Positions 18,414 through 49,541 of a stretch of DNA of 64,000 bases are shown one piece after another. This DNA is from an uncultured Coriobacteriia bacterium (GTDB taxonomy: Bacteria > Actinomycetota > Coriobacteriia > Coriobacteriales > QAMH01). Made by a program: the position numbers and the translations under genes. A model generated the notes under the pieces. The model saw nothing but the letters and a program-made list of their open reading frames with translations. It did no database searches and was not told the DNA's origin. The number at the start of each line of letters is the position of its first letter. Within the stretch, counting starts at the first letter, position 1. The DNA lies in assembly GCA_902475535.1 (NCBI GenBank), contig CABRZR010000006.1:22720-86719 (forward strand), read 5' to 3'.

Positions 18414-18415
18414 CC

Positions 18416-29809: not shown

Positions 29810-30499
29810 TCATTTCACGACGGTAAAGTCAACGAGAAACGGATTGACGCTGTTCATGAATTCCTTGCGATGGGCCACGGTTGCCTGACCTTCGGGAATA
29901 GTTTTGAAAGCATTGGCAACTTCGGATGCCTCGCTGAAAAACAGCTCGAGTATCCCATCAAACGGGAGCCTGTCATGAGTAACATGACGACCATTTATCA
30001 TACGGTCGATAATGAGATGCTGGTTATACCCGTAGAAAATGTCAGTAGGCATCTTCGCCATGCATCCCGAATGAACGACAAACCATTCGCGAGTGAAGTC
30101 CTCAAATGACACATCCGGCACCGTGCGGCCCAGCAACGTCATCTTCTTCTGGCATCCATCCTCAACGCGCAGGGGAATGGACACGTTTTCAAGGCAGACG
30201 TAGGTCTCTTCGTACATCACCGCGTTTACGCGCTCACACAAAACCGCTGCATATGCATTGGATCTTCTAGCCTCCTCGTATGCGTCGAGATCGACATAGC
30301 GCTCGATGGTAAACGCATCGGCAAGAATCGCTTCAGAAGAGGCGTCACCGCGTTCCTTGGCAGTGACCCGATCGAACTCGAAGGATTCGAGCTCGGGGAT
30401 TTGAAGACACAGGGGTGCATAGACATCGTGCAGAAATGCGTCAAATTCGCTGTCTGAGATAGTCGGATCTTTGCGTAAGAGGTTAATGCAGGAAATCAT
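29810..30499 (-). CDS. Tandem EthD-domain protein (paralog 1 of 3)
   Basis: The ORF was trimmed to the ATG at 30497-30499, giving 229 aa starting MISCINLLRKDPTISDSEFDAFLHDVY. It shares the MIS.(I/M).LL(K/R) start, the Y(N/A)Q(N/H)L(V/I)IDR motif and the LP(V/F)(E/D)G..E(F/L)(W/F)F motif with the proteins at 32862-33563 and 41948-42643. Confidence 0.6.
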   Translation of the reverse strand: MISCINLLRKDPTISDSEFDAFLHDVYAPLCLQIPELESFEFDRVTAKERGDASSEAILADAFTIERYVDLDAYEEARRSNAYAAVLCERVNAVMYEETYVCLENVSIPLRVEDGCQKKMTLLGRTVPDVSFEDFTREWFVVHSGCMAKMPTDIFYGYNQHLIIDRMINGRHVTHDRLPFDGILELFFSEASEVANAFKTIPEGQATVAHRKEFMNSVNPFLVDFTVVK

Positions 30500-30626
30500 A
30501 GCACCTGCCCTTTCTACTCCAAAAACGGTTTTGGGATTAGCGGAAGGCGCGCAGATATGGCGCGCCCTCCACAGGAAAAGGAATGTGGTTCGCCAGCGTG
30601 GCACGAGGGCGACCCACGACAAACAC

Positions 30627-31118
30627 CTACATCATGAAGACCTTATAGGCATTGGCCGTATCCTCGTAGCGCTTCTTTATCTCGGCTTTACCACGTAGGT
30701 ACGTCAGTGACATCTCGGTAAAGTACCAGCGGCCATCGATTTTCACGTAGGCGTTGTCATAGTGGGCACGTCCGACAAACTCGCCGCCGTTCTCCGCATC
30801 GTAGAGATCGTCCTCAAGTGACCAGTGTGATGTTGCCGTATCTGGCCCCGTGATGTCGATCCAATGATGATGCCCCTGATGACTCGAGGTCACGTTGTCG
30901 CCGAACTTACCCTTCATGGTCTCGAGCATGCCATCGCGTCCTTCGTAACGGCCACCTGTCGTATTGTTGATGAAGACGAAGTCCTCGACAAGGCATGCAG
31001 CAAGTCCATCCCAGTCCTTGGCGTCGAGCGTGTCCCAATACGTCGCTTGAAGTCGCTCGATCGCACGCATGTCCTCGAGAGCCTGGATGCGTTTTTCAAG
31101 ATCCTCCATGGTGCTCAT
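30627..31118 (-). CDS. SnoaL_4 / NTF2-fold protein (BaiE-like dehydratase/isomerase fold)
   Basis: 163-aa ORF beginning with an N-terminal helix (LEKRIQALEDMRAIERLQATYWDTLDAKDWDGL). It has Tyr27-x4-Asp32, a His cluster at 80-85 (SSHQGHHHW), and WSLEDDL...YDNAYVKIDGRWYF, characteristic of the SnoaL_4 family. Confidence 0.7.
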   Translation of the reverse strand: MSTMEDLEKRIQALEDMRAIERLQATYWDTLDAKDWDGLAACLVEDFVFINNTTGGRYEGRDGMLETMKGKFGDNVTSSHQGHHHWIDITGPDTATSHWSLEDDLYDAENGGEFVGRAHYDNAYVKIDGRWYFTEMSLTYLRGKAEIKKRYEDTANAYKVFMM

Positions 31119-31130
31119 GGCAATCGCTCC

Positions 31131-31880
31131 TTACAAGAGGCTGAATCCGCCCTCTTCGTAGATGGTCTCGCCAGTGATGAACGAGGCATCATCCGAGGCG
31201 AGGAAGAGGGCGACGCTTACCATCTCCTCGATCTCGCCATAGCGACCAAACGGCATCTTTGCCAGGAAGGCGGCGTTGCGCTCCGGGTCGAACCTCGTGC
31301 CTTCCGTGATGCGAGTCTTCGAGGTGCCCGGGGCAACGGCGTTGACGTGAATGTCGTATTTGGCGAGCTCAAGCGCCATAACCTGCGTGAGCATGCTCAC
31401 GGCTGCCTTGGAAGGGCCGTAGGGCGTGATGCCGCCGATGGTCTTGCGTGCGCTATTGGAGCTCGTGTTGACGATATATCCCTTGATGCCCTTATCGACC
31501 ATCGTACGCGCAACGGCCTGGCCCACGTAAAACACGCCGTTCAGATTCGTGTCCATGACGTCGAGCCAGCCTTCCTGACTGCACTCGAGGAAAGGCTGAC
31601 GATGGGTGATGCCCGCATTGTTCATGAGGACGTCGATATGACCAAACTCCTCGATGACCTTGGCGACGCTCTCCTGCACCTGCCCATAGTCGCGAACATC
31701 ACAGTGCATGCAATACACGCGCTCGTTATCGGCGTAGACCTCTTCCATGGTATCGTCTTCGATATCGAAGACGATGACCTGTGCGCCTTCCCTCACGAGC
31801 TGCTCGGTCATGCCACGACCCAGACCATTGGCACCGCCGGTCACCAGCGCGATTTTGTCGATGAACCTTTGCTTTTCCAT
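31131..31880 (-). CDS. Short-chain dehydrogenase/reductase (classical SDR, 249 aa)
   Basis: Motifs ALVTGGANGLG, NNAG and catalytic YGPSKAA. It lies 12 nt upstream of the SnoaL_4 gene. Confidence 0.88.
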   Translation of the reverse strand: MEKQRFIDKIALVTGGANGLGRGMTEQLVREGAQVIVFDIEDDTMEEVYADNERVYCMHCDVRDYGQVQESVAKVIEEFGHIDVLMNNAGITHRQPFLECSQEGWLDVMDTNLNGVFYVGQAVARTMVDKGIKGYIVNTSSNSARKTIGGITPYGPSKAAVSMLTQVMALELAKYDIHVNAVAPGTSKTRITEGTRFDPERNAAFLAKMPFGRYGEIEEMVSVALFLASDDASFITGETIYEEGGFSLL

Positions 31881-31898
31881 GGATGCTTCCTTTCGGTC

Positions 31899-32795
31899 CT
31901 ATTGCTTGTCAGCCGTCGCCAGGTGTAGATAGGTTGTGGCACCGCCATCGGCCGCGATGGATTCGCCGTTGATGAAGCTCGCGTCATCGGAAGCGAGAAA
32001 CAGCGCGACCGAAGCGATCTCTTCGGGAAGCGCGTAGCGCTTCATCGACGATGCCTCGCTGAGACCCTTGCGGTTCTGTCCCCTGGGCAGCGTCATGTCC
32101 GTAAGGATGAGCCCGGGGTTCACCGCATTGACACGCACCCCGTAGGCCCCCAGGTCGGTAGCTGCGGCACGGGTTGCGCCCAAAGCCGCGGCCTTGGCCA
32201 TCGCGTAGCCGATAAGATTGCCAGGACCAAAGTGATTGCCCTGGTAGGAGCAGGTATTGACGATAGCACCACCACCTGAGTCGATGATGGCCTGGGCACA
32301 GTAGTGCATGCCGTTGTAGACACCCCAGCAATCGACGTCCATCATGCGCTCGAGATCCTGGCGGGATGCCGTGAGAACCGACCCGTTCACGCAAATGCCG
32401 GCATTGTTCACGAGCACGTCGAGATGTCCTTGCTCGTCGAGTATCTTCTCGACGAGCTTCTGCCAGGCGACCTCGTCGACGACGTCCATGGGAAAGACCA
32501 CGGCCTCTCCCCCGTCATCCCTGATCTGCGCTTCCACACGCCTGAGCCCGTCTTCCTTGACGTCGGTCATGTAAACCGTCGCGCCTTGCTGAGCGAACAT
32601 CTTGGCTTCCATCTCGCCTTGGCCGCCAGCGGCACCAGTCACGATGACCACCTGGCCCTCGAACTTCCCGGAGCCCTTCTCGACCCGAGGCCAGCGCTTC
32701 GCCTGCTCCTCGCCATAGACCTTCTCCTCGAACTCCGCCTGACCAGGCCCCGAGAGGATGACGTCATCGAAAAATTCCGCGCGCTTTGACTTCAT
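31899..32795 (-). CDS. SDR with an approximately 50-aa N-terminal extension
   Basis: The ORF was trimmed to the ATG at 32793-32795, preceded by GGAGAG. Motifs VIVTGAAGGQG, NNAG and catalytic YAMAKAA. Confidence 0.85.
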   Translation of the reverse strand: MKSKRAEFFDDVILSGPGQAEFEEKVYGEEQAKRWPRVEKGSGKFEGQVVIVTGAAGGQGEMEAKMFAQQGATVYMTDVKEDGLRRVEAQIRDDGGEAVVFPMDVVDEVAWQKLVEKILDEQGHLDVLVNNAGICVNGSVLTASRQDLERMMDVDCWGVYNGMHYCAQAIIDSGGGAIVNTCSYQGNHFGPGNLIGYAMAKAAALGATRAAATDLGAYGVRVNAVNPGLILTDMTLPRGQNRKGLSEASSMKRYALPEEIASVALFLASDDASFINGESIAADGGATTYLHLATADKQ

Positions 32796-32810
32796 GGTTC
32801 TCTCCATTCA

Positions 32811-32852
32811 GGAAAAAGCGGCCGCATCGAATTCCATATCCGATGCGGCCGC
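32811..32852 (-). terminator. Strong intrinsic terminator between the EthD gene and the SDR genes
   Basis: Perfect 12-bp stem GCGGCCGCATCG / CGATGCGGCCGC with an 11-nt loop. On the minus strand it is followed by TTTTT. It lies 10 nt after the EthD stop and its T-tract ends 15 nt before the SDR start. Confidence 0.75.
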
Positions 32853-32861
32853 ATGAATCGA

Positions 32862-33563
32862 CTAGTCTTCCAGTTCGACGGGAACCGCTTCGACAAAGTA
32901 GGTCGTCACCGTTCCGATGAACTCGGCGGCATGGACGCTTGCGCGCTTCTTGAAGCCCACGCTGCCATAGCATTCGTCGAAGGCTTCCATGTCCTCGAAC
33001 CAGAACTCGACCATACCCTCGACCGGGAGATCCTTATAGTGGACCTCTTCGTCACCGATGCAGCGGTCGATCACCAGGTTCTGGTTGTAGCCGCAGCATC
33101 CTCCCATCAGTTCCACCAGTATGGAGTGGACGTACCACCACTCGAAGTGGAAGGTCATGGCATCGACGCCCTCGGCGCGGTCGCAGAACGAGACGCGCTT
33201 GATGATGTCGCGACCCTTGAGGTACTCGGGGACGAGCTTGTCGAATTTCCTGACCGTGACAAGCGCGGAGATTGGCTTTTCCACGATGGGTTCGAGCACG
33301 TCGCGAAGGGCATCGCCGGCCTGGGTCATGCACTTTGCCATGTCCCCGTAGCTGTCGAAGATCATCTCTATGAAACCGTCGATGTCAATCGCCCCGCGAC
33401 ACAGATGCGAACGCTGCTGCTTATCGGTCACGAAGTTGATCTCGCACTTGCGCAGCAGGGGCATCTTGGCGATTACGTCACGCGCCTCCCCCATCATCAC
33501 CGCGCGGAATTCCTCTTCGGAAATTCCCTCCTTGCACTTGAGTAGATTAATTCTGGAAATCAT
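32862..33563 (-). CDS. Tandem EthD-domain protein (paralog 2 of 3)
   Basis: 233-aa ORF starting MISRINLLKCKEGISEEEFRAVMMGE. Its second half (IIKRVSFCDRAEGVDAMTFHFEWWYVHS...YNQNLVIDR...LPVEGMVEFWFEDMEAFDECY) repeats the EthD pattern. Confidence 0.65.
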   Translation of the reverse strand: MISRINLLKCKEGISEEEFRAVMMGEARDVIAKMPLLRKCEINFVTDKQQRSHLCRGAIDIDGFIEMIFDSYGDMAKCMTQAGDALRDVLEPIVEKPISALVTVRKFDKLVPEYLKGRDIIKRVSFCDRAEGVDAMTFHFEWWYVHSILVELMGGCCGYNQNLVIDRCIGDEEVHYKDLPVEGMVEFWFEDMEAFDECYGSVGFKKRASVHAAEFIGTVTTYFVEAVPVELED

Positions 33564-33588
33564 GACTACTCCCCTTCTTCAAGGTTGT

Positions 33589-34851
33589 TTAGTTCTCGGC
33601 ATTCTTGGCTTCCATCATGGCAGCATCGCGAGCCTTCATCTTGTTGTAGATCGGCAGACCGATTGCAAGCAGGATGATTGCGATGATGCAAAGGACGCCC
33701 AGGATGGGAAACGCCGTGCTATAGCTGCCCGTTGCGGCGAGCGTGTTGGCGGAGAGCATGGGGCCGATGACGGCCGCAAGCGCATAGCCCCAGTACATGA
33801 AGCCATAGTTCTGGCCCATGTTGGCCGGGCCAAAGGCATCGCCAGTAAGCGAAGGCATGATGGCCATGATGCCGCCAAAGCACATGCCCAGCACGATCGA
33901 CTCGATGATGAAGGGCATCGTGGAATCGGTGTTTCCATAGAGGAACAGGTGAATCACCGCGGTGATGCCGATAACGATGAACAGCGTCTGGAATCGTCCG
34001 ATCTTGTCGGAGAGAGTGCCAAAGCCAAAGCGTCCGGCGGCATTGGCAACGGCGAAGATGCTGACCATCATGGCGCCCGTCGCGGCATCCATGCCCGCTT
34101 GCGTCTGGCCGACGAGGGATGCGGTACCGAGCATGAACACGCCCGTGCATGCGGTGAGCGCGAATACGATGACCATGATCCAGAAGAGCGGGGTCTTCAT
34201 CATCTCGGGCGTAGTGTAGCTCCTGCGGTTCTTGGCCTCCTCGTCAACGGGAGGATTCCAACCCTCGGGCTGGTAGTCTGCAGGCGGCAGAACGTAGCAA
34301 AGCCACGAGAAGATGAGGAACATGACGATGCTGAACGCGCCCACGACCATGAACGAGGGCATGGGACCGATTGCCTGCACGATCATGTTTCCGACCGGGG
34401 CAGTCCACAGCGGCCACAAGGCCATCGTGGCGAGCGAGATACCGTTGACGAGGCCCTTCTTGTCCGGGAACCAGCGCGTGGTCAAGGCCAGCGACGTGTT
34501 GTAGATAATGCCATCGGCAAAGCCGACGATGATGCCGAAGGTGATGAGCAGCATGATGGGATTCGTTGAAAAGCCCGTGAGAATCCAGCCGATGCCAAAG
34601 ACGATACCGCTGACGAGCATGATCTTGTGAGCCGCGAACTTGCGCTGGAACCAGCCGCCAACGGGGCCACCCGCAAAGCCAATGACAACGATGGCGAGCG
34701 TGTAGGCGAGTGCCACGATCTGCGGCGACCAGCCAAACTCGGCCATCATGGGTTTCTGAAAAATGCTGTAGCAATTCAATGATGCGGTGATCGCTCCGCA
34801 CATTGCCGCGCCGACGAGAACTACCCAGCGCGATTTAGGCTTCATTGCCAT
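33589..34851 (-). CDS. MFS transporter, oxalate/formate-antiporter (OFA)-like subfamily
   Basis: The ORF was trimmed to the ATG at 34849-34851, 4 nt after GGAGGA, giving 420 aa. It has 12 predicted TMs and a TTRWFPDKKGL motif shared with the partial MFS at the window end. Confidence 0.8.
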   Translation of the reverse strand: MAMKPKSRWVVLVGAAMCGAITASLNCYSIFQKPMMAEFGWSPQIVALAYTLAIVVIGFAGGPVGGWFQRKFAAHKIMLVSGIVFGIGWILTGFSTNPIMLLITFGIIVGFADGIIYNTSLALTTRWFPDKKGLVNGISLATMALWPLWTAPVGNMIVQAIGPMPSFMVVGAFSIVMFLIFSWLCYVLPPADYQPEGWNPPVDEEAKNRRSYTTPEMMKTPLFWIMVIVFALTACTGVFMLGTASLVGQTQAGMDAATGAMMVSIFAVANAAGRFGFGTLSDKIGRFQTLFIVIGITAVIHLFLYGNTDSTMPFIIESIVLGMCFGGIMAIMPSLTGDAFGPANMGQNYGFMYWGYALAAVIGPMLSANTLAATGSYSTAFPILGVLCIIAIILLAIGLPIYNKMKARDAAMMEAKNAEN

Positions 34852-35152
34852 GTGTTCCTCCAATATAGCTTCCGAAAGATTACGTGCATGCGAAAGGCAT
34901 CGCCTTTCCCCCAAACCGAGACCCCTCCTCCTTTCGTTTCGACGTGCAAACCGTTCTATACGCACATGATTCCGATGCTGCGATACGTGCTGATGTGCCG
35001 GAGTCAATTGATGCCGAAACTGGACTAGATCCTCACCGCTGCGTTGCGGTTCATGCCAAGAAGCCAGAGAAAACAATGAGGAAGATGACCCCACTTGCCT
35101 TGAAGGTATCCCTCCTCACGAGATGTATGCTATGAGGGTTTCAAGATGACCT

Positions 35153-35174
35153 CAATAACGCACTTAAAAGTAAG
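35153..35174 (-). promoter_or_regulatory. Cluster motif copy S1 (CAATAACGCACTTAAAAGTAAG on the plus strand)
   Basis: It matches S3 at 22 of 23 positions including the following A. It sits in the 360-bp non-coding region upstream of the OFA-MFS gene. In gene orientation it reads CTTACTTTTAAGTGCGTTATTG. Confidence 0.55.
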
Positions 35175-35211
35175 AAGCTGCCGTATACGTAAGTACGACA
35201 GCCAAATTTGG

Positions 35212-36609: not shown

Positions 36610-36714
36610 CGGACCCTCTCCCTTTGAAAAGGCAAACGAGAACTGTAAGGGCGCAGGAGGACGTTTCCCCCTGCGCCCATATGACGGCGCGAGACGAACT
36701 AATCTGTGGCAGGG

Positions 36715-38227: not shown

Positions 38228-38249
38228 CAATAACGCACAAATAAGTTAG
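38228..38249 (-). promoter_or_regulatory. Cluster motif copy S2 (CAATAACGCACAAATAAGTTAG) with adjacent perfect palindrome CTTACCAAAAGGTAAG (38252-38267)
   Basis: It shares CAATAACGCAC with S1. In gene orientation it reads CTAACTTATTTGTGCGTTATTG, with a TAAC-N10-GTTA dyad. It lies between the ene-reductase stop (38333) and the MHS start (38034). Confidence 0.5.
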
Positions 38250-38332
38250 TCCTTACCAAAAGGTAAGATATGGAGGGGAAAGGCTCCCCGCCTCGAGCAA
38301 GACGAGAAGTCCTCGAGCAGTGGATCAAGCGA

Positions 38333-40393
38333 CTAAATCCGGCATGCAGCCTCTCTGCCATCGATGATGGCGTGCTTGACGAACGCGTTATCGCCTCCCA
38401 GCGTGGAGCCAATCTCCACGACCTCGACACCCGCGTTCCTGAGCTCATCGCAAAACGCGGCATCGCGCTTCTCGGGAAGCATGACGAGAACGCTGTCGCA
38501 GCCAAAGGTGCGCTCCCTGCCATCCACCTCCGCAATGACGAGACCCTTGCGGATCTCCTTGCATGTGGCATTGCGCACGACCTCGACGCCGTTTTCCTCG
38601 AACCAGGGCTCCAAGCGCACCTTGTAGGGCACGGGAACCAATCCGCCGATGTCATCGTCTTCCGAGAGCAGCGTGACGTCCTTTCCGCAGTGGGCCATGA
38701 ACGTTGCGCACTGCGCGCCCTCGGCACCGGCACCCAAAACGACTATCTTCTTGCCCACGGGCATGAAATGCCTGCTCGCCTTGTGTATGAACTCGGGACT
38801 GAAGAGCTTGAGCGGGAGTTTCGCGAGCTTCGAAAGCCCGGGGATGGTGTACACGTTGCTGCCGTCGATACCGGGAATGTCGGGAATCAGATATGGCGAG
38901 CTGTTGGCGAGCATGACCACATCGGGTTTTTCTCGCCTGACGAGCTCTGCCGAGACCTCCTCGTTGAGATGCACCCGCACGTCGTACTTGCCCACCATGG
39001 TGGTGAGGTAATCGTAGATGGGCATGATGTCCTCGACCTTGTTGCCCTTGATCATCGATGCCAGCTTGAGCCTGCCACCCAGCTCGCCGGACCTCTCGTA
39101 CAAGTCCACGTCATGACCGCGAGCCGCCGCGTCAATGGCCGCCTGCATGCCAGCAGGACCTCCGCCGATGACCATTACCTTCTTCCTTGTCTCAGCGGGC
39201 TTGAGCTCGAGCTCCTTCTCGCGCCCGAGCGCGGGATTCACGCGGCAGATACGCGGTGAGACGAGCGGGTCCTGACACGACCCGCAGCGATTGCACCGGC
39301 GAATCTCGTCGATGCGTTCCTCCTTCACCTTGTTGGGAAACTCGGGGTCTGCCCATAGATAGCGGCCAAAGCCGATGATATCGGCATAGCCTTCCTCGAG
39401 CGCGCGCTCGCCCTTGACCTCGTCCATACGACCGACGCACACGACAGGCACCTTGACGGCATCGTGGATGTACTTTGCCGCCGGAAGCAGCAGTCCCATG
39501 TCCTCGTAGTCCTTCATGTAAGGACGCATGTGGGGCTCGGGGTCGGGATACGGAAAGTAATCCGGAATGAAGCGGAACGGAAGCTCGCCATAACCATATC
39601 CGGTCACGCTGATGTATTGGTATCCAATCATCTCGAGCGCTATGGCGGTGTCGCGCGCCATGTCGGGCGTGATACCGTTATTTCCCGTCAAGGGCGAGAA
39701 CTCGATGCCGTTGATGCGCGTGCCGATGAGAAAGTCGGGACCGCATGCCTGCCGAATCATCTGGTAGAGCTCTGCCATGACACGCGTGCGATTGGCCACG
39801 TTCTCGAAGGCATACTCGTCATCGCGCTTGTTCCATATGGGGCTGAGGAAGCTGTTGAGCAGGTATCCATGTGCGGCATGCACCTCGACACCGTCAAATC
39901 CGGCCTTCTTCATGCGCACGGCGCCCTCGACGATGAGCTTCTCCTTCTCGTGAATCTCCTCGACCGAGAGCCCGCGTGTCGCGCGCCCCTCGGGTTCGGG
40001 AATGGGAAGGTCCTCGGTCTCAATTGTCGACGAGCTGAAGGGTCGCCCTTCGCCGAGCACGGCCGCGGAAGGCCCACCATGGTGGAGCTGGCCTATGATA
40101 TAGCTGTCATGGCGATGCACGGCCTCCGCGAGCTCGGTCAAGCCCGGGATGAACTTGTCATCCCAGACGTTGCAGTAGCGCCCGGGCATGTCATCCCACA
40201 TAACGCCGCCGATGACCACGGCCGCCGCGCCGCCTGCGGCGATGCTCTCGTACAAACCGATTGCCGCGCTTCCATCGGCGGTGCCGTCATCGTTCCAGCG
40301 AAACGTTGACTGGCCCGTCTTCATGATGCGGTTCTTGAAGATAATCTTCGGCGTGATCTCCAGCGGAGACATAAGTTTTTCGAAGCCACCCAT
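38333..40393 (-). CDS. FadH/OYE-type Fe-S flavoenzyme (NADH:flavin oxidoreductase / enoate-reductase family), paralog A
   Basis: 686-aa ORF. The OYE TIM-barrel signature is HAAHGYLLNSFLSPIWNKRDDEY. The Cys cluster is CNRCGSCQDPLVSPRIC. Two dinucleotide folds are present (VMVIGGGPAGMQAA and VVLGAGAEGAQCA). Confidence 0.88.
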   Translation of the reverse strand: MGGFEKLMSPLEITPKIIFKNRIMKTGQSTFRWNDDGTADGSAAIGLYESIAAGGAAAVVIGGVMWDDMPGRYCNVWDDKFIPGLTELAEAVHRHDSYIIGQLHHGGPSAAVLGEGRPFSSSTIETEDLPIPEPEGRATRGLSVEEIHEKEKLIVEGAVRMKKAGFDGVEVHAAHGYLLNSFLSPIWNKRDDEYAFENVANRTRVMAELYQMIRQACGPDFLIGTRINGIEFSPLTGNNGITPDMARDTAIALEMIGYQYISVTGYGYGELPFRFIPDYFPYPDPEPHMRPYMKDYEDMGLLLPAAKYIHDAVKVPVVCVGRMDEVKGERALEEGYADIIGFGRYLWADPEFPNKVKEERIDEIRRCNRCGSCQDPLVSPRICRVNPALGREKELELKPAETRKKVMVIGGGPAGMQAAIDAAARGHDVDLYERSGELGGRLKLASMIKGNKVEDIMPIYDYLTTMVGKYDVRVHLNEEVSAELVRREKPDVVMLANSSPYLIPDIPGIDGSNVYTIPGLSKLAKLPLKLFSPEFIHKASRHFMPVGKKIVVLGAGAEGAQCATFMAHCGKDVTLLSEDDDIGGLVPVPYKVRLEPWFEENGVEVVRNATCKEIRKGLVIAEVDGRERTFGCDSVLVMLPEKRDAAFCDELRNAGVEVVEIGSTLGGDNAFVKHAIIDGREAACRI

Positions 40394-40413
40394 GGATTGA
40401 TTCCTCCAATGTC

Positions 40414-41160
40414 CTAGAACAGCGTGAAGCCGCCATCCTCAACCAAGGTCTCGCCGGTAACGTAGGAAGCGTCGTCACTTGCCAGGAACAGCGCGACGTT
40501 TGCGGCCTCCTCGGGAGCGCCATAGCGGCCCATGGGAATGTTGGCGAGAAACTGCGCGTTGCGCTCGGGGTCATTCCTCGTGCCCTCGGTAATGCGCGTC
40601 ATGCTCGTGCCCGGCCCGAAGGCATTGACGCGGATTCCATGTTCGGCAAGCTCCAAGGCGAGCCATTTGGTCAGCTGGGACACACCCGCCTTGCTGGCGG
40701 CGTACGCGCCGGTGTTCTTGGAGACCGTGCGCGACGTGCATGAGCTCGTGTTGACGATGGCACCCTTGATTCCGCGTTCGATCATCGACTTCGCCACGGC
40801 CTGGTCCATCCAAAAGCATCCATTGAGGTTGATGTCGATGACGCGCCGCCATTCCTCCTCGGTCGTGCTCTGCACGCTCCCGCGTTTGATGATGCCCGCG
40901 TTGCTGAAAAGGATGTCGATATGCCCGTATGCCTCGAGCACCTCGTCTACCACCTTGTTGCACATGGCGTAATCGGCAACGTCGAGGGGATAGATCGTGA
41001 TGTTCTCGTTGCCCTCGAATTCGCGTACCAACGTGTCACCCTCGATATCGAGCGCCGCAACCTTGGCACCCTCTTCGAGAAGGCGGCAGACAATGCAATG
41101 GCCAATGCCGTTTGCCGCGCCCGTCACCACGGCCACTTTATCCTCGAACCTCTTGCCCAT
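40414..41160 (-). CDS. Short-chain dehydrogenase/reductase (248 aa)
   Basis: Motifs AVVTGAANGIG, SNAG and catalytic YAASKAG. It lies 20 nt upstream of ene-reductase A and 24 nt downstream of the HxlR gene. Confidence 0.88.
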   Translation of the reverse strand: MGKRFEDKVAVVTGAANGIGHCIVCRLLEEGAKVAALDIEGDTLVREFEGNENITIYPLDVADYAMCNKVVDEVLEAYGHIDILFSNAGIIKRGSVQSTTEEEWRRVIDINLNGCFWMDQAVAKSMIERGIKGAIVNTSSCTSRTVSKNTGAYAASKAGVSQLTKWLALELAEHGIRVNAFGPGTSMTRITEGTRNDPERNAQFLANIPMGRYGAPEEAANVALFLASDDASYVTGETLVEDGGFTLF

Positions 41161-41184
41161 CGTTTCTCCTTACCTTTAGCTGGT

Positions 41185-41676
41185 CTATTCTTCTGCCTCG
41201 TCCTCGTCACACGCGGTGTCGAAGTACCAGACAATGTGCTCGCGCGTCTTATCGATCTTGCCGTCCTCACCCCCGGTGCCGTATTCGAGCTTCCCATCGT
41301 TGAGGGAGCCCTTCGTTTGCTTGAGTGCCTCAACCGAGAAGTTGCGGTGCACGACGCCCCAATCGCGAATGAGATACAGGAGGTTTGCCATGCTGATGCC
41401 GTCTGGCGTGAGGAGATAGTCGACCCACAGGGGCTTGTCTTCGACCACGACACGTTCGAGCATGCCCGTCTCCTCGAGCTCGTTGAGATGCTGCGAGAAC
41501 ATCTTGTCCGATATCTTGTACGGGATGATTTTCTTGAGCTCGCCGTAGCGCGCACGTTGATGAGGTTGCAAGCTCAGGTACCAGATGATGAACGGCTTCC
41601 ACTTGCCACCCAAGATCTTTGTGAGGACCTGCGTAAGCATGCATGAGGTTAACCTGTCGATACTGTTAGGATCCAT
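41185..41676 (-). CDS. HxlR-family winged-helix transcriptional regulator with an approximately 60-aa C-terminal extension
   Basis: The ORF was trimmed to the ATG at 41674-41676, 8 nt after GGGAGG. The HxlR signature is LGGKWKPFIIWYL...RYGELKKIIPYKISDKMFSQHLNELEETGMLERV. It is the first gene of the HxlR-SDR-ene-reductase run. Confidence 0.85.
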   Translation of the reverse strand: MDPNSIDRLTSCMLTQVLTKILGGKWKPFIIWYLSLQPHQRARYGELKKIIPYKISDKMFSQHLNELEETGMLERVVVEDKPLWVDYLLTPDGISMANLLYLIRDWGVVHRNFSVEALKQTKGSLNDGKLEYGTGGEDGKIDKTREHIVWYFDTACDEDEAEE

Positions 41677-41947
41677 CACAATCGCCTCCCGAGCCACGCC
41701 ATTACCTCGACCGGCCTCTGGTCAAAGACACTCACGGAATCCCTGCGCAATAGAGATGCAAGGAGATTATTATTGCCCCCCCCTGAAAGCAATCACAGAG
41801 CCAGGGGGTTTGTGGTAGATACAGGACCGAAGATATGTCCTCATCGACGCCTGCCCTTCCCCGTCTATAACGACATGGGGCCGGACTCGTCGAGCCCGGC
41901 CCAAACCACCACACTTCAAGCTAGGTTCGCTATCTGGCAATGGCAAG

Positions 41948-42643
41948 CTAGAGTATGTCGTGTACCTCGGTAAGATACGTGTTAATCGCACCGATGAACT
42001 CGCTGCCGTGCTGCGACGTCCTCTTGAACTCGGGAGAGTCGTAGCATTCGTTGAAGGCATCCATGTTCTCGAACCAGAACTCGACGACGCCCTCGACAGG
42101 AAGCTCGTCATAATGGACGGAAACGCCGTTGACGATGCGATCGATCACGAGATTCTGCGCATAGCCAACGTAACCCGGCATGGTGTGCACCATTTCGGTG
42201 TGAACGTCCCACCACTGGTACATCCACTCCTCGGCGCTCACGCCCTCGGCTCGACCCATGAACGACACGCGCTTGATAAGCGGCTTGTCGCCATTCAACA
42301 AGTATTTGGGAGTGTGTTTCACGAACTTCTTCACGCAAACGAGAATGGGATTATGCGGGTCGGCGAACTTCGGAACGTCATCGGCACCCTTGCCGTCTAA
42401 CGACATGACGCCCTCGACCATGTCGCCATAGCTATCAAACTGCAGCTCGGAATAGCCATCGATGATGATGGGACCCTGGCCCAAGGGATGACGATGCTCG
42501 TTGTCGCATACCGCGTGCTGAGAGTAATGGCGCAGGTTCTTCATCTCCGCGGCGATGGGACCATGGACGTTGAGCCAGTAATCCTTGAATTCTTCCTGCG
42601 TCGTGCCCTCTTTGCGCTTCAAGAGACCCATTCTGCTAATCAT
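41948..42643 (-). CDS. Tandem EthD-domain protein (paralog 3 of 3)
   Basis: 231-aa ORF. The N-terminus MISRMGLLKRKEGTTQEEFKDYWLNVHGPIAAEMKNLRHYSQHAV closely follows the EthD-family consensus as I recall it. A second EthD-like half follows. It is divergent from ene-reductase B. Confidence 0.7.
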   Translation of the reverse strand: MISRMGLLKRKEGTTQEEFKDYWLNVHGPIAAEMKNLRHYSQHAVCDNEHRHPLGQGPIIIDGYSELQFDSYGDMVEGVMSLDGKGADDVPKFADPHNPILVCVKKFVKHTPKYLLNGDKPLIKRVSFMGRAEGVSAEEWMYQWWDVHTEMVHTMPGYVGYAQNLVIDRIVNGVSVHYDELPVEGVVEFWFENMDAFNECYDSPEFKRTSQHGSEFIGAINTYLTEVHDIL

Positions 42644-42719
42644 GTGTGACCACTCTCCTTAGACACCTTCATGTAGTCCTGCCTTCTTCCAAGATTCTAG
42701 AAACGGGATTACGCCGAAA

Positions 42720-42741
42720 CAATTACGCACTTAAAAGTAAG
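42720..42741 (-). promoter_or_regulatory. Cluster motif copy S3 (CAATTACGCACTTAAAAGTAAG)
   Basis: It lies about 80 nt upstream of the EthD paralog-3 start. In gene orientation it reads CTTACTTTTAAGTGCGTAATTG, with a TTAC-N10-GTAA dyad. Confidence 0.55.
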
Positions 42742-42791
42742 AGGAGACATGGGAAGTCCCCCGTCATCTCATCGAAGGCTGCGTAGAAGCG

Positions 42792-42813
42792 CTAACAATA
42801 AAGTGCGTACTTG
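42792..42813 (+). promoter_or_regulatory. Cluster motif copy S4 (CTAACAATAAAGTGCGTACTTG), oriented toward ene-reductase B
   Basis: It is inverted relative to S3, 50 bp away, and about 75 nt upstream of ATG 42888. Its orientation relative to the downstream gene is the same as for S1-S3. Confidence 0.5.
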
Positions 42814-42887
42814 GAATGCCCCTATCACGCTCCCTATGATGACAGCCGCACGAACGCATAGTCCCGTGTTGGCCGTCGAAAGAGGAT

Positions 42888-44954
42888 ATGATGCAAGAAT
42901 TCGAACATCTCATGTCACCCATCGAAATCGCCCCGAGCTTCAAGATGAAGAACAGGATCATGAAGGCGCCTCAGTCAACATGGAGGTGGAATCTCGATGG
43001 TACCGCCGATGGCAGCGCGGGCATTGACCTATACGAGAGCATGGCCAAGGGCGGTGTCGGTGCCATCGACATAGCCGGCATCAACTGGGAGCCGCCGGTA
43101 GGTGGCGGCATCTACCTCTGCGCCTACGATGACAGGTTCATCTCGGGCCTCACCGAGCTTGCCGAGCGTCTGCACAAGTACGATTGCCGCGTGATCGGCC
43201 AGCTCCATCATGGCGGTCCGCTCGCTCCCGTGCAAGGCGGCGGCAGGCCCATCTGCGCCTCGACGCTCGAAATAGAGGACCTTCCCACCCCTCCTCCCGA
43301 GGGACTCGCGACCCATGGTCTCACGCACGACGAGCTCATCGAGAAACGCCAGCTCATCGTCGATGCAGCCGTACGCTTATGGAAGGCCGGTTTTGATGGC
43401 GTGGAAATCCACGCGGCCCACGGTTACTTCCTCAACAGCTTCCTCAGCCCCATTTGGAACCACCGCGATGACGAGTACGGCCCCCAGACGGCCGAGAGCC
43501 GCACGCGCATCATGAAGGAGATTCATGACATGGTACGCGACGCATGCGGGCCGGACTTCGTCATAGGCACGCGCATCAACGGCCAGGAATGGTCTCCGCT
43601 CGTCTCGGGCGGCATCACGCCCGAGCTCGCCGTCAAGAATGCCAAGGCCCTCGAATCCTATGGTTACCAGTACATAAGCGTATCGGGATATGGATACGGC
43701 AAGCTCCCGTTCCGCTACTGTCCCGACTACTTCCCCTACCCCGATCCGGAATCCTTCATGGAACCCTATATGGAGGATTTCAACGATCTTGGCATCCTCA
43801 TGCCGGGAATCCGAGCCGTCAAGGAAGCCGTTAACGTTCCGGTCATCGGCGTCGGCCGCATGGACGAGGTCAAGGGCGAGCGCGTGCTGCGAGAGGGATA
43901 TGCCGATATCATCGCCTACGGGCGCTACCTCTGGGCCGATCCCGAGTTCGCCAACAAGGTCAAGGAGGGTCGTACCGACGAGATTCGCCGGTGCAATCGC
44001 TGCGCGAGCTGCGAGGATCCCGTCACGTCCCCTCGCATCTGCCGCGTGAACCCCGCGCTCGGACGCGAACGCGAACTCGAGCTCAAACCCGTCGAGACAA
44101 GCAAGAAGGTCATGGTGATCGGCGGTGGCACGGCGGGAATGCAATGTGCGCTCGATGCCGCCGAACGTGGATTCGACGTGACGATATACGAGAAGAAGGG
44201 CGAACTCGGTGGCCGCATCAAGCTCGCCTCCATGATAAAGGGCGACAAGGACGAAGACGTCATGCCGCTTTTCGATTACCTCACCACCATGATCGAGAAG
44301 TCCAACGTCACCGTCAAGCTCAAGACCGAAGTGACATTGGACCTCGTGAAACGCGAGAAACCGGACATCGTCGCGCTCGCAGACAGCTCTCCCTACTTCA
44401 TTCCCGACATCGAGGGCATCGACCGAAAGAACGTCTTCACGATACCGGCAATGACCAAGCTTGCCTCCATCCCCATGAAGATGTTCGGTCCCAGAAAGCT
44501 CGCGACCATGAGCGAAAAGGTCTTTCCCGTCGGCAAGAAGATCGTGATTCTGGGTGCCGGCGCCGAGGGAGCCCAATGCGCGACGTTTTTGGCTCATCGC
44601 GGGAAGGAAGTCGTCCTCCTTGCCGAGACCGAAGACGTTGGCGGCCTCGTGCCCCAAAAGTACAAGGTACGCCTCGTTCCGTGGTTCGAGGAGCATGGCG
44701 TGCGCATCGTCTATAACTCGCAACTGCTGCGCATCGAGAAGAAGTCGGTGACTGTCGAAGTCGATGGGAAAGCCGAGGAAATTGCCTGCGATAGCGTGAT
44801 GGTCATGCTTCCGGAACAACATGACCCCAGCTTCTACGAACAACTCGTGCAGATCGTGCCCGAGGTCTACGAAATCGGCTCGACACTCGGAGGCGACAAC
44901 GCCTTCCTGAAACATGCGATGCTCGACGGACGCTTGGCGGCCGTGAAGATGTAA
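42888..44954 (+). CDS. FadH/OYE-type Fe-S flavoenzyme, paralog B
   Basis: 688-aa ORF. By eye, 41 of the first 66 aligned residues are identical to paralog A. It has the same Cys cluster spacing (CNRCASCEDPVTSPRIC) and the same dinucleotide folds (VMVIGGGTAGMQCA, VILGAGAEGAQCA). Confidence 0.88.
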   Translation: MMQEFEHLMSPIEIAPSFKMKNRIMKAPQSTWRWNLDGTADGSAGIDLYESMAKGGVGAIDIAGINWEPPVGGGIYLCAYDDRFISGLTELAERLHKYDCRVIGQLHHGGPLAPVQGGGRPICASTLEIEDLPTPPPEGLATHGLTHDELIEKRQLIVDAAVRLWKAGFDGVEIHAAHGYFLNSFLSPIWNHRDDEYGPQTAESRTRIMKEIHDMVRDACGPDFVIGTRINGQEWSPLVSGGITPELAVKNAKALESYGYQYISVSGYGYGKLPFRYCPDYFPYPDPESFMEPYMEDFNDLGILMPGIRAVKEAVNVPVIGVGRMDEVKGERVLREGYADIIAYGRYLWADPEFANKVKEGRTDEIRRCNRCASCEDPVTSPRICRVNPALGRERELELKPVETSKKVMVIGGGTAGMQCALDAAERGFDVTIYEKKGELGGRIKLASMIKGDKDEDVMPLFDYLTTMIEKSNVTVKLKTEVTLDLVKREKPDIVALADSSPYFIPDIEGIDRKNVFTIPAMTKLASIPMKMFGPRKLATMSEKVFPVGKKIVILGAGAEGAQCATFLAHRGKEVVLLAETEDVGGLVPQKYKVRLVPWFEEHGVRIVYNSQLLRIEKKSVTVEVDGKAEEIACDSVMVMLPEQHDPSFYEQLVQIVPEVYEIGSTLGGDNAFLKHAMLDGRLAAVKM

Positions 44955-45041
44955 GTGCGCTCGGTCTGGGGCATATAAGAGCGCAGCGTCCCAAGAGCAT
45001 AGGCGCCACAGGTGTTGGCCTGCCAGCCAGCACGTCACTCC

Positions 45042-45087
45042 GGGCGGGTGAGGGTCCCTCCTCCTCACTCGCCCCCTCCTTTTTTTA
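45042..45087 (+). terminator. Probable intrinsic terminator of ene-reductase B
   Basis: The stem GGGCGGGTGAGG / CCTCACTCGCCC pairs at 11 of 12 positions. It is followed by CCTCC and then a T7 run (45080-45086). Confidence 0.5.
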
Positions 45088-45089
45088 CG

Positions 45090-45488
45090 TTACCAACCTA
45101 CCGTGCGCTTGGAGCCATCTGCCAGAGACTCGAAGGTCGCCGTCGCGTTCTTGAAGTACAGAACGATGGTGTTGTCGTCGTTCTCGTCGTACATGCCACG
45201 CAGCGCGGGATAGTTGTCGAGCATGTGCTTCTTGGCCTCGACACTGTCATCGGGTACGAGCTCGCCGGAAAGACGCAGCCACTCAGGGCCGACACAGGCA
45301 CATATCTCGACCTGCGGATGATCCACAATCTGCCGGTAGACCTTCTTGGACTTGCCCGTCTGGATATACAGCTTGCCGTCGTACAGGTCGACGGTGCCGA
45401 AGGGACGCACACGCGGCTCGCCGTTCTCGACCGTTGCCAGGTAATACGTGGGTGCCTTTTCCTTGAGAAACTCGTAGACCTCGTCCAT
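45090..45488 (-). CDS. Pyridoxamine-5'-phosphate-oxidase-like FMN-binding split-barrel protein
   Basis: The ORF was trimmed to the ATG at 45486-45488, 6 nt after AAGGAG, giving 132 aa. The sequence begins MDEVYEFLKEKAPTYYLATVENGEPRVRPFGTVDLYDGKLYIQTGKSKKVYRQI, typical of the small PNPOx-like family. Confidence 0.7.
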   Translation of the reverse strand: MDEVYEFLKEKAPTYYLATVENGEPRVRPFGTVDLYDGKLYIQTGKSKKVYRQIVDHPQVEICACVGPEWLRLSGELVPDDSVEAKKHMLDNYPALRGMYDENDDNTIVLYFKNATATFESLADGSKRTVGW

Positions 45489-49537: not shown

Positions 49538-49541
49538 TCTC

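Follow-up and report, generated by a model that had tools for sequence, protein, structure and literature searches.

What does a 16-kb cluster of reductases, short-chain dehydrogenases (SDRs), tandem-EthD proteins and transporters do in an uncultured gut Eggerthellaceae bacterium? The cluster lies in a window of 64 kb, the whole stretch of DNA that was analysed, and the original prediction had described it as an island of one functional theme, a candidate for an uncharacterised polyphenol or steroid/bile-acid pathway. We found that the island is real and conserved and that its units are apparently co-regulated, and we see an even chance that it encodes an inducible, CoA-independent pathway for the reductive dehydroxylation of a hydroxylated six-membered-ring carboxylic acid. 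Scans with Pfam and NCBIfam models confirmed the families of all fourteen predicted genes, and the layout also held, with 12 co-directional genes on the minus strand and reductase B divergent from them:

29810-30508, minus strand: EthD3, divergent tandem-EthD protein, putative ring dehydratase/isomerase, about 232 aa (Pfam EthD, 9.2e-11)
30627-31118, minus strand: BaiE-like SnoaL_4 protein, putative dehydratase, 163 aa (Pfam SnoaL_4, 5.4e-24)
31131-31880, minus strand: SDR1, classical short-chain dehydrogenase, 249 aa (Pfam adh_short_C2, 1.2e-63)
31899-32795, minus strand: SDR2, 298 aa, with an N-terminal extension (Pfam, 3.7e-57)
32862-33563, minus strand: EthD2, tandem-EthD protein, 233 aa (Pfam EthD)
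33589-34851, minus strand: OFA-family MFS, putative monocarboxylate transporter, about 420 aa (NCBIfam SfMCT)
35158-35175, no strand: box A, ACGCACTTAAAAGTAAGA, operator-like, upstream of the MFS-EthD2-SDR2-SDR1-SnoaL4-EthD3 unit
35212-36609, minus strand: DcuC-like permease, 465 aa (NCBIfam DcuC, 7.5e-7)
36715-38142, minus strand: MHS-family MFS metabolite/H+ symporter (TIGR00883, 371.6 bits)
38233-38267, no strand: box C, degenerate ACGCACAAATAAGTTAGT followed by the palindrome CTTACCAAAAGGTAAG, upstream of the MHS gene
38333-40393, minus strand: reductase A, FadH/OYE-type Fe-S flavoenzyme, putative enone (C=C) reductase, 686 aa (Pfam Oxidored_FMN and Pyr_redox_2)
40414-41160, minus strand: SDR3, 248 aa (Pfam, 5.6e-66)
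41185-41697, minus strand: HxlR-family winged-helix regulator, 163-170 aa (Pfam HxlR, 5.2e-17)
41948-42643, minus strand: EthD1, tandem-EthD protein, 231 aa (Pfam EthD, 4.4e-24 in two stretches, and MmlI)
42725-42742, no strand: box B, ACGCACTTAAAAGTAAGA, in the divergent EthD1/reductase B promoter region
42888-44954, plus strand: reductase B, FadH/OYE-type Fe-S flavoenzyme, 688 aa (Pfam Oxidored_FMN and Pyr_redox_2)
45090-45563, minus strand: PNPOx-like FMN-binding protein (Pfam PNPOx_N, 2.3e-10)

As a correction to the earlier gene calls, the EthD3 reading frame starts at an internal ATG at 30508. The MFS gene most likely starts at 34851, its N-terminus having been trimmed from the ORF end at 35094 by comparison with relatives of 411-422 aa. 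The PNPOx gene accompanies the island in close relatives only (seen with locus L013) and is peripheral, outside the conserved core.

The gene set recurs as one block in Eggerthella sp. YY7918, where the same genes form one co-directional array, and in E. sinensis, Gordonibacter An230, Rubneribacter and Ellagibacter. Because the same set is syntenic in at least five Eggerthellaceae genera and in Oscillospiraceae, the island is not a chance assembly, and the compact Oscillospiraceae version, with 72-77% protein identity, shows that it crosses phyla. SDR1 is the most conserved gene (85% identity to the YY7918 copy, 74-77% to the Oscillospiraceae copies); the SnoaL_4 protein shares 72-76% identity with its Oscillospiraceae copies, reductase B 61-75% with copies in other genera, and EthD2 75% with YY7918 P0105. 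Gene order is shuffled among genomes, and each island carries four or five dehydratase-like genes, three SDRs and two reductases. In another gut variant, the partner of the EthD gene encodes a FAD_binding_2 flavoprotein.

The gene for the HxlR protein, which has an N-terminal Cys ahead of a GGKWK motif, travels with the island in most versions and is the only regulator conserved with it. A box, ACGCACTT-NN-AAGT, precedes three transcription units of the island and is absent from the rest of the 64 kb. Boxes A and B share an exact 18-mer, and the 19-mer AACGCACTTAAAAGTAAGA, which adds one 5' base, has only two matches at up to three mismatches in the window, against zero expected. Box C shares the exact 13-mer CTCAATAACGCAC with box A and carries its palindrome at 38252; its variant also precedes MHS/MFS genes in loci L013, L031 and L001. 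In five other genera, the box also precedes homologs of these genes; shuffled controls of 515 kb gave 0-5 matches. The units of the island are thus probably co-regulated, and the box is probably the operator of the HxlR protein, a predicted pairing; it could instead be a shared promoter element.

The two Fe-S flavoenzymes, predicted to be paralogs of about 687 aa, proved to be 65% identical, with CxxCxxCx10C in both. Reductase A contains CNRCGSCQDPLVSPRIC and two dinucleotide-binding motifs, its closest solved relatives are NCR and FadH, and it scored 290 bits against the BaiCD model (cut-off 825) and 303 against BilR (cut-off 750). The closest solved relatives of SDR1 are generic (2-deoxy-D-gluconate 3-dehydrogenase and FabG), and SDR3 is 53% identical to SDR1; the top solved match of SDR2 is butanediol dehydrogenase, with BaiA 3α-HSDH in 13th place, followed by 7α-HSDHs. 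Against the BaiCD, BilR, BaiA and HSDH models, the reductases and SDRs scored no better than against generic family members.

By contrast, the SnoaL_4 protein pointed to a specific relative. BaiE is by far its closest solved homolog (E 1.6e-16 versus 1.9e-5 for the next; 64 versus 28 bits), with 36% identity, and the full BaiE active site of six residues is retained (Y27/D32/H80/D103/Y120/R142, corresponding to Y30/D35/H83/D106/Y126/R146 of BaiE), making the original analogy to BaiE stronger than had been realised. The protein is a candidate cofactor-free dehydratase.

The tandem-EthD family is rare, with 28 cluster representatives at E≤1e-30 among 1.84 billion. EthD2 and EthD1 are 48% identical, while EthD3 shares 26% with EthD1 and 29% with EthD2 and retains the family motifs W..H, GYNQ and LP.DG..E. 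The AlphaFold model of EthD1 (pLDDT 94) consists of two ferredoxin-like lobes forming a two-lobed α+β barrel, and its invariant polar residues are D62, D70, H148, Q163, D168, R169, E188 and H212. Foldseek searches with EthD1 retrieved tandem α+β barrels, the best solved single-domain match being MmlI, which aligned with the C-terminal lobe (24% identity, TM 0.8). MmlI, a 4-methylmuconolactone methylisomerase and, like muconolactone isomerase, an α+β barrel enzyme of one domain, resembles the proposed enzymes in being cofactor-free and acting on a carboxylated ring compound; it differs in being a single-domain homodimer that isomerises its substrate in aerobic aromatic catabolism, and to our knowledge it has no linkage to a reductase. 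That the nearest solved single-domain EthD relative is an isomerase counts against a dehydratase role.

The only characterised two-lobed EthD enzyme is Hsh3, a purified 7β-hydroxysteroid dehydratase from Sphingobium sp. Chol11; the study describing it detected no homologs in metagenomes from the human gut (PMC12175502). Like the island proteins, Hsh3 matches Pfam EthD, adopts a two-lobed pseudo-dimeric α/β barrel of about 230-240 aa and is encoded beside SDR genes (PMC12175502). In the Hsh3-like sequence that we recovered, the Pfam EthD match falls in the C-terminal half, and inspection of the alignment by eye revealed a common C-terminal-lobe motif, W..H...Y.QN...VE..F. However, Hsh3 acts in aerobic steroid degradation, and the island proteins are only 10-21% identical to it (BLASTP E 0.077, hhalign probability 7%), which places them in a different subfamily and makes a dehydratase role one assigned by analogy. 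With Hsh3 as precedent, the EthD proteins are better read as putative dehydratases or isomerases feeding ene-reductases.

Linkage of the tandem-EthD family to C=C reductase genes extends to aerobic Proteobacteria, whose FAD_binding_2-SDR-ABC-MBL-EamA-OYE-EthD clusters (Variovorax, Microvirga, Comamonas) encode members with 31-38% identity directly beside an ene-reductase, an SDR and a cyclic-ketone desaturase-like flavoprotein. Among 48 such loci, 26 have an OYE gene on the same strand no more than 3 kb away, 33 include a KstD/ChcC2-like flavoprotein and 34 an SDR. These clusters differ from the island in having a single-domain OYE rather than a Fe-S FadH-type enzyme, no SnoaL_4 or HxlR gene, an IclR regulator in 17 of the 48 loci and an ABC uptake system in annotated loci; our literature search found no characterisation of them.

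Transporters in every version of the island belong, by sequence, to small-anion/carboxylate families (MHS, OFA/SfMCT, DcuC-like, DASS and GntP). Here, the OFA-type MFS passes the SfMCT L-lactate model of NCBIfam (353 bits, cut-off 320) and scores 215 bits against OFA TIGR00890, and the MHS symporter matches TcuC (302 bits), ProP (284) and ShiA (239), each below its cut-off. The 465-aa permease has no Pfam match and a weak DcuC match over residues 178-459; its gene adjoins the MHS gene in the Eggerthellaceae versions. Given these transporters in all versions, a hydrophilic ring acid is at least as likely a substrate as steroids.

Comparison with databases and literature identified no characterised pathway that matches the island, as originally proposed. 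A close counterpart is the bai operon of Clostridium scindens (Hylemon-Björkhem bile-acid 7α-dehydroxylation), with which it shares an oxidise-dehydrate-reduce logic, a pair of paralogous FadH-type Fe-S flavoenzymes, a SnoaL_4 protein with the catalytic residues of BaiE, SDRs and an MFS transporter. By contrast, the island has three or four extra tandem-EthD genes, small-anion transporters and an HxlR regulator, its reductases fall far below the BaiCD cut-off, and its hosts are Eggerthellaceae and Oscillospiraceae. The predicted lack of a CoA ligase (BaiB) or CoA transferase (BaiF/BaiK) was borne out in every version examined, none of which has an AMP-binding, CoA-ligase or CoA-transferase gene.

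Clues to the substrate conflict: the BaiE homology points to a steroid nucleus, and a small polyhydroxylated acid is suggested by the transporter families and by how many dehydratase paralogs there are. One possible, if tentative, reading from this context is a gut pathway for reducing hydroaromatic acids from plants (quinate and shikimate, including their esters or lactones) step by step to products of the cyclohexanecarboxylate type, in which four dehydratase-like proteins would serve up to four ring hydroxyls. Gut and rumen microbes have been reported since the 1970s to form cyclohexanecarboxylate from quinate and shikimate, and our literature search found no paper assigning genes to this conversion. 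Besides the number of dehydratase, SDR and reductase genes and the small hydrophilic anions carried by all transporter families, with MHS being the family of the shikimate carrier ShiA, this reading is favoured by the feruloyl-esterase-type hydrolases in variant locus L005, a lactonase-like MBL protein in the Eggerthella CAG:298 variant, a proteobacterial partner flavoprotein nearer to ChcC2 (4-oxocyclohexenecarboxylate dehydrogenase, 585 bits) than to KstD (522 bits), and tandem-EthD genes adjoining linC (cyclohexadienediol dehydrogenase) in Sphingobium. However, none of the island proteins has a homolog among characterised enzymes of quinate or shikimate, SDR scores against the ChcB1/ChcB2 models are far below the cut-offs, and the only specific homology, that to BaiE, favours steroids.

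That homology, with its intact active site, argues for a second, somewhat less likely reading. Under it, Eggerthellaceae and Oscillospiraceae would dehydroxylate bile acids or steroid hormones at 7α/7β or another ring position by a bai-like but CoA-free route, with the SnoaL_4 protein acting as BaiE, the EthD proteins as Hsh3, reductases A and B as BaiCD/BaiH and the SDRs as hydroxysteroid dehydrogenases. Eggerthellaceae are known transformers of bile acids and steroids, the paired Fe-S flavoenzymes recall bai, dehydration of Δ4-3-keto-7β-hydroxy steroids is within reach of an EthD protein, as Hsh3 demonstrates, and the BSH-type gene predicted 22 kb upstream is indeed a choloylglycine-hydrolase-family gene (CBAH, 6731-7744, E 2e-95). 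Against this stand the low BaiCD score, the marginal similarity to Hsh3, a bile-salt MFS score of only 52.8 bits (cut-off 400) and four or five dehydratases, more than 7-dehydroxylation needs. Moreover, among the top SDR1 homologs listed, none is named HSDH and none comes from Eggerthella CAG:298, from which three HSDHs have been characterised. We know of no role in bile-acid transport for the DASS, GntP and DcuC-like families. The remaining probability falls to a substrate that is neither a quinate/shikimate-type hydroaromatic acid nor a bile acid or steroid.

The coherent reductive island and the BaiE likeness of the original prediction were thus upheld, and its polyphenol option gained no specific support. 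A flavonoid, isoflavone or stilbene pathway, with the EthD proteins as chalcone-isomerase-like ring openers and the Fe-S flavoenzymes as DZNR/ERED-like reductases, is unlikely. DZNR and ERED belong to the FadH type, YY7918 produces equol, and the equol cluster (DZNR, DHDR, THDR, DDRC) and E. ramulus CHI/ERED share with the island a FadH-type reductase, an SDR and a gut-anaerobe host; yet the island lacks a THDR-like gene and a racemase and instead has a BaiE-like dehydratase and anion transporters, which would be unexpected for polyphenol aglycones. The proposed likeness to E. ramulus chalcone isomerase, which also has two ferredoxin-like lobes and appeared among the EthD1 Foldseek matches (E about 1e-6), reduced to a generic fold match (TM 0.45-0.50, 12% identity) that an anthrone oxidase-like protein, sulfur oxygenase reductase and MmlI equalled or beat. 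In addition, the island was undetected in species representatives of Adlercreutzia, Slackia and E. lenta, the classical equol and polyphenol converters, and the resveratrol reductase of E. lenta belongs to a different enzyme class. Similarly improbable is that the island holds no single pathway but a collection of HxlR-controlled genes that detoxify electrophiles such as enones and quinones (OYE-type reductases, SDRs and efflux carriers, with EthD as binding or stress proteins): quinone and enone reductases are commonly under regulators of the HxlR/YodB type, the N-terminal Cys is typical of thiol-sensing members and gene order is shuffled, but the same six or seven families stay together over two phyla at very high identity, the invariant polar residues of EthD are typical of a catalytic site, and a BaiE-type dehydratase with an intact active site would have no role.

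In the reductive dehydroxylation pathway that we propose, the acid would enter through the anion transporters, and an SDR would oxidise a ring hydroxyl to a ketone. A cofactor-free dehydratase, for which the BaiE-like SnoaL_4 protein and the three tandem-EthD proteins are candidates, would then remove an adjacent or vinylogous hydroxyl, yielding an enone whose C=C bond would be saturated by one of the two Fe-S flavin reductases before an SDR reduces the ketone back. The dehydratase and SDR paralogs would permit several rounds or several stereochemistries, and the HxlR protein would bind the ACGCACTT-NN-AAGT boxes and may sense electrophilic enone intermediates. For the bacteria that carry it, the pathway would probably be an electron sink.

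Open reading frame listing together with Pfam and NCBIfam scans confirmed every gene that the original prediction had placed in the island, as follows.

29810-30508, minus strand: tandem-EthD protein EthD3 (Pfam EthD)
30627-31118, minus strand: SnoaL_4 protein
31131-31880, minus strand: classical short-chain dehydrogenase SDR1
31899-32795, minus strand: classical short-chain dehydrogenase SDR2
32862-33563, minus strand: tandem-EthD protein EthD2 (Pfam EthD)
38333-40393, minus strand: reductase A, Oxidored_FMN and Pyr_redox_2 domains, 686 aa
40414-41160, minus strand: classical short-chain dehydrogenase SDR3
41948-42643, minus strand: tandem-EthD protein EthD1 (Pfam EthD)
42888-44954, divergent from the rest: reductase B, Oxidored_FMN and Pyr_redox_2 domains, 688 aa
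within the island, minus strand: OFA-type MFS transporter (above the SfMCT monocarboxylate-transporter cut-off); MHS-type MFS transporter; 465-aa permease (weak DcuC match); HxlR regulator
within the island: PNPOx-like protein

Twelve island genes are co-directional on the minus strand, with reductase B divergent. The flanks are unrelated, consisting of CopA, MerR and DUF554 genes upstream and TauE, lactate permease and molybdopterin oxidoreductase genes downstream. PNPOx, TauE, lactate permease, CopA/MerR and DUF554 were rejected as island members, their co-travel being limited to close relatives. The interval 49115-51905 holds a molybdopterin oxidoreductase gene (787 aa; Fe4S4, Molybdopterin and Molydop_binding domains) and, downstream of it, a small ORF of 146 aa; Eggerthellaceae use such oxidoreductases for catechol dehydroxylation and other respiratory reductions. 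The BSH-type gene predicted 22 kb upstream proved to be real (6731-7744, choloylglycine-hydrolase family, Pfam CBAH E 2e-95), and a flavin reductase-rubredoxin fusion (10998-11744) and a further SDR (11846-12646) lie a few kb from it. Elsewhere in the window we observed a 666-aa MFS transporter fused to two C-terminal CBS domains (23374-25374), adjoining GH2 glycosidase-like (21391-23295) and galactokinase-like (20059-21336) genes, and a 298-aa protein (16509-17405) matching bacterial/archaeo-eukaryotic release-factor-like (baeRF) families, domains that are frequent in conflict or defence systems.

The island recurs well beyond this contig. The window itself belongs to an uncultured Coriobacteriia/Eggerthellaceae species of the gut, and MAG contigs match it at 98-100% identity. 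When its proteins were compared by tblastn with all fetched loci, the island families recurred together in Eggerthellaceae genera and in Oscillospiraceae. In Eggerthella sp. YY7918 they form a single co-directional array (MHS, permease, EthD, two FadH-type genes, MFS, EthD, three SDRs, SnoaL_4, EthD), and E. sinensis DSM 16107, Gordonibacter sp. An230 and Rubneribacter badeniensis have this same array with HxlR and a fourth EthD gene in front. Ellagibacter, Eggerthella sp. CAG:298 and several MAGs have the island in partial or rearranged form. In Oscillospiraceae, among them Candidatus Limivicinus, it takes a compact form in which HxlR and a FadH-type gene form one arm, divergent from a second arm of DUF169, SDR, EthD, a 422-aa membrane protein, DASS, SnoaL_4, SDR, a GntP-type transporter and SDR; an SDR of this version is listed in 153 collection blocks of the index. 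In one such Oscillospiraceae locus (L089), the DUF169 protein lies at 9213-9968 and the 422-aa protein, which had no Pfam or NCBIfam match, at 11521-12789. Between the two phyla SDR1 is 74-77% and SnoaL_4 72-76% identical, which implies recent horizontal transfer. In species representatives of E. lenta, Gordonibacter pamelaeae, Adlercreutzia and Slackia, a genome scan built on two peptide patterns and retaining matches down to 31% identity did not detect the island.

Several variants differ in accessory genes. On the CAG:298 scaffold FR895137.1 (locus L020) the order is reductase-SDR-lactonase-EthD-SDR-MFS, and the three adjacent SDRs are absent (compare the characterised CAG:298 HSDHs CDD59473-5); neither a CAG:298 nor an HSDH name appears among the best 120 SDR1 homologs. 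The lactonase-like MBL-fold protein of this variant (L020:3720-4523; AhlS/AiiA/4-pyridoxolactonase-like, below cut-offs), encoded between an SDR gene and an EthD gene, hints at a substrate in lactone form. A further variant with two HxlR genes (L005, metagenome contig NODE_9_length_270421) has two Abhydrolase_3/BD-FAE esterase genes at its flanks (441-1421 and 18236-19186), together with 4HBT thioesterase, LysR and Crp-type regulator genes.

Among solved structures, the SnoaL_4 protein is closest to the three BaiE bile-acid 7α-dehydratases (60-64 bits, E 1.6e-16 to 3.2e-15), and the next match is at 1.9e-5. Identity is 36% overall, and the HMMER alignment is free of gaps across 103 columns. 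In the bai operon of Clostridium scindens the 7α-dehydratase is BaiE, a SnoaL_4 protein whose catalytic residues include Y30, D35 and H83, and the island has a matching protein: all six BaiE residues Y30/D35/H83/D106/Y126/R146 are identical in SnoaL_4 (Y27/D32/H80/D103/Y120/R142). A recent review (PMC12065433) assigns to them the roles of catalytic acid, of base with its partner residue, and of substrate contacts. Because of this relationship and the conserved active site, the SnoaL_4 protein is very probably a dehydratase, which would remove a hydroxyl group placed β to a ring ketone or in vinylogous position to it. The likeness to BaiE is nevertheless no proof of a steroid substrate, since similar residues serve in other dehydratases of the NTF2 fold, scytalone dehydratase among them.

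The tandem-EthD proteins belong to a rare family, with 790 matches at E≤1e-3, 147 at ≤1e-10 and 28 at ≤1e-30 among 1.84 billion cluster representatives. EthD1 and EthD2 are 48% identical and EthD3 is 26-29% identical to those two; D62, D70, H148, Q163, D168, R169, E188 and H212 are the invariant polar residues of the family. The AlphaFold model of EthD1 (pLDDT 94) has two ferredoxin-like lobes of βαββαβ type, and Foldseek returned generic tandem α+β barrel proteins, MmlI being the best single-domain match. Other tandem α+β barrel proteins ranked above the Eubacterium ramulus chalcone isomerase (Foldseek E ~1e-6, TM 0.45-0.50, rmsd >7 Å, 12% identity), and phmmer found no chalcone isomerase match.

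The Hsh3 enzyme of Sphingobium sp. Chol11 offers a precedent for dehydratase chemistry. This 7β-hydroxysteroid dehydratase, which has been purified, contains an EthD domain in a mirror-symmetric two-lobed α/β barrel, and the authors who described it found no gut homologs (PMC12175502). As a comparison sequence we retrieved a metagenome contig (LLBY010016176.1, locus L087) through an exact match to the published hsh3 primer. The C-terminus of its 239-aa ORF (L087:1710-2429) differs in a single residue from that encoded by the published reverse primer, and the protein is either Hsh3 from an environmental source or very closely homologous to it. Pfam EthD lies in the C-terminal half of this protein, and the ORF is preceded by two SDR-like ORFs, of which Pfam confirmed the nearer. 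The window proteins share with Hsh3 the EthD domain (Pfam, three of three), the two-lobed α/β barrel (EthD1 model) and a length of ~230-240 aa. No significant similarity of the window EthD proteins to the Hsh3-like sequence was detected (BLASTP E 0.077 over 58 residues; hhalign probability 7%). Because identity in a MAFFT alignment was just 10-21%, Hsh3 is a precedent for tandem-EthD chemistry, not an ortholog. More distant tandem-EthD genes lie downstream of linC and another SDR gene on Sphingobium plasmids. On plasmid pMI1 of Sphingobium sp. MI1205 (168604-180957, locus L086), an SDR gene stands immediately before each of two tandem-EthD genes (228 aa); one of these SDR genes is linC, which encodes the 2,5-dichloro-2,5-cyclohexadiene-1,4-diol dehydrogenase of lindane degradation. 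IS6100 copies lie between the two SDR-EthD pairs and elsewhere along the stretch.

Full-length EthD homologs with 31-38% identity were found in Variovorax, Microvirga, Bradyrhizobium, Comamonas and other Proteobacteria. An OYE gene lay within 3 kb on the same strand, often <100 bp away, in 26 of 48 proteobacterial EthD loci; anywhere in the fetched locus, MBL-fold genes were present in 31, KstD/ChcC2-like FAD_binding_2 genes in 33 and SDR genes in 34 of the 48. These assignments were confirmed by Pfam and NCBIfam in Microvirga, Aquabacterium and Variovorax. In the gut island variant L001, an EthD gene and three transporters adjoin a FAD_binding_2 flavoprotein in place of a FadH-type enzyme. 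What stays constant beside EthD is a partner enzyme that forms or saturates a C=C bond in a ring, which fits EthD as a dehydratase or isomerase feeding that partner. Across loci L038-L085 (for example L083:17-10693 and L049:8179-15830) we also observed a conserved cluster in Variovorax, Microvirga, Comamonas and other Proteobacteria, composed of FAD_binding_2 (KstD/ChcC2-like), SDR, LIV-type ABC transporter, MBL hydrolase, EamA, OYE and tandem EthD genes. No characterisation of this FAD_binding_2/OYE/EthD cluster was found; it resembles an aerobic equivalent of the island seen in gut bacteria.

A look-up for entries identical to reductase B gave no match. Reductases A and B are 65% identical, and both carry CxxCxxCx10C and two dinucleotide-binding motifs within the FadH architecture (OYE, 4Fe-4S and FAD/NAD(P)H domains; FadH 1ps9 E 6.4e-41). 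They share domain architecture and Fe-S motif with BaiCD/BaiH, but their scores against the NCBIfam BaiCD model (290 and 287 bits, cut-off 825) fall short of an ortholog-level match, and those against BilR are ~300 (cut-off 750). These are generic family scores, BaiCD being no better than BilR or mycofactocin OYE. Housekeeping 2,4-dienoyl-CoA reductases would be expected beside β-oxidation or other CoA-pathway genes, and no CoA-pathway neighbour occurred in any genome examined. Likewise, the predicted lack of a bai-type CoA ligase or transferase holds in every island version: no AMP-binding or CoA-transferase domain, as expected for BaiB or BaiF/BaiK, was found in the window island or any related locus. 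The best solved relatives of the SDRs are generic overall; SDR1 matched generic sugar-acid and FabG types, and for SDR2 the BaiA 3α-hydroxysteroid dehydrogenase ranks 13th (122 bits vs 162 for the top match). Transporters vary among island versions, always within families for small organic anions (MHS, OFA/SfMCT, DcuC-like, DASS and GntP).

A shared DNA element links the transcription units. Two copies of the 18-mer ACGCACTTAAAAGTAAGA are present, one at 35158, upstream of the MFS-EthD2-SDR2-SDR1-SnoaL4-EthD3 unit, and one at 42725, in the divergent EthD1/reductase B region. Upstream of the MHS gene, at 38233-38267, a degenerate copy stands just before the palindrome CTTACCAAAAGGTAAG. The 19-mer AACGCACTTAAAAGTAAGA, extended by one base at the 5' end, had no further match with ≤3 mismatches in the 64-kb window, where none is expected by chance. 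Related sites, in gene orientation nnTnACTTTnAAGTGCGT and in the same orientation in all but one, were found upstream of HxlR, MHS, EthD or SnoaL_4 in YY7918, E. sinensis, Gordonibacter, Rubneribacter, Ellagibacter, CAG:298 and Oscillospiraceae; the Ellagibacter site is the near-perfect palindrome GCGCACTTTCAAGTGCGT. A shuffled control of 515 kb gave 0-5 box matches. Because no other regulator travels with the island, we infer that HxlR is the likely binder of the box, and we propose HxlR and box as a regulator-operator pair.

Collectively, the best-supported mechanism is a CoA-independent cycle acting on a hydroxylated alicyclic carboxylate, probably under HxlR control. First, a ring hydroxyl would be oxidised by an SDR, giving a ketone; elimination of a nearby hydroxyl by SnoaL_4 or by one of the EthD proteins would follow, an Fe-S flavoenzyme would saturate the resulting C=C bond, and an SDR would reduce the ketone back. 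As substrate, a small ring acid with several hydroxyls, for instance quinate or shikimate, is a tentative candidate, consistent with the transporter families, the four or five dehydratase-like genes per island, the variants with esterase or lactonase genes and the ChcC2-like flavoprotein partner in Proteobacteria. A steroid or bile acid, one of the two substrate classes originally predicted, is a slightly less likely, equally tentative candidate; it is favoured by the homology of SnoaL_4 to BaiE, the Hsh3 precedent, the presence of two Fe-S flavoenzymes as in bai and the BSH-family gene in the genome. The other, a polyphenol, found no specific support; the chalcone isomerase match is weak, and neither a THDR-like flavoprotein nor a dihydrodaidzein racemase was present in 29810-45563, judged by the domain families of its 14 listed genes.

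No paper describing the island cluster was found, and the expectation that its gene set would fit no described pathway was borne out, since no characterised pathway with the combination was found. Searches for EthD in Eggerthella returned no literature, and for SnoaL in Eggerthella bai reviews alone. A survey of Fe-S flavoenzymes notes YY7918 merely as having nine such enzymes, the resveratrol reductase of E. lenta belongs to another enzyme class, a paper on gut steroid 5β- and Δ6-reductases shows no Eggerthellaceae cluster, and a 2026 steroid preprint concerns 11β-HSDH. The island brings known enzyme families and chemistry into a new combination, namely a BaiE-like dehydratase, rare tandem-EthD proteins, no CoA handling and an HxlR regulon, in two phyla. 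It is conceivable, though we advance this with reserve, that tandem-EthD proteins are an unrecognised class of cofactor-free ring dehydratases that act in concert with ene-reductases from gut anaerobes to soil Proteobacteria, and that the island encodes either a gut quinate/shikimate-to-cyclohexanecarboxylate pathway or, as an alternative to the known route, a second way of forming secondary bile acids that needs no CoA and lies outside Clostridia.

The gut reduction of quinate and shikimate to cyclohexanecarboxylate has long been sought as a proposed microbial source of urinary hippurate. To our knowledge it has been reported since the 1970s with its genes never assigned, and we found no paper assigning genes to the quinate reaction. 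If quinate or shikimate is the substrate, the island would supply genes and cultured organisms for a reduction that shapes hippurate excretion. If the substrate is a bile acid, predictions of secondary-bile-acid producers from baiB/baiCD/baiE-based metagenomics would miss many Eggerthellaceae and Oscillospiraceae. With either substrate, a rare EthD family gains a testable role, and three cultured carrier strains, YY7918, E. sinensis DSM 16107 and Rubneribacter badeniensis, make the prediction directly testable.
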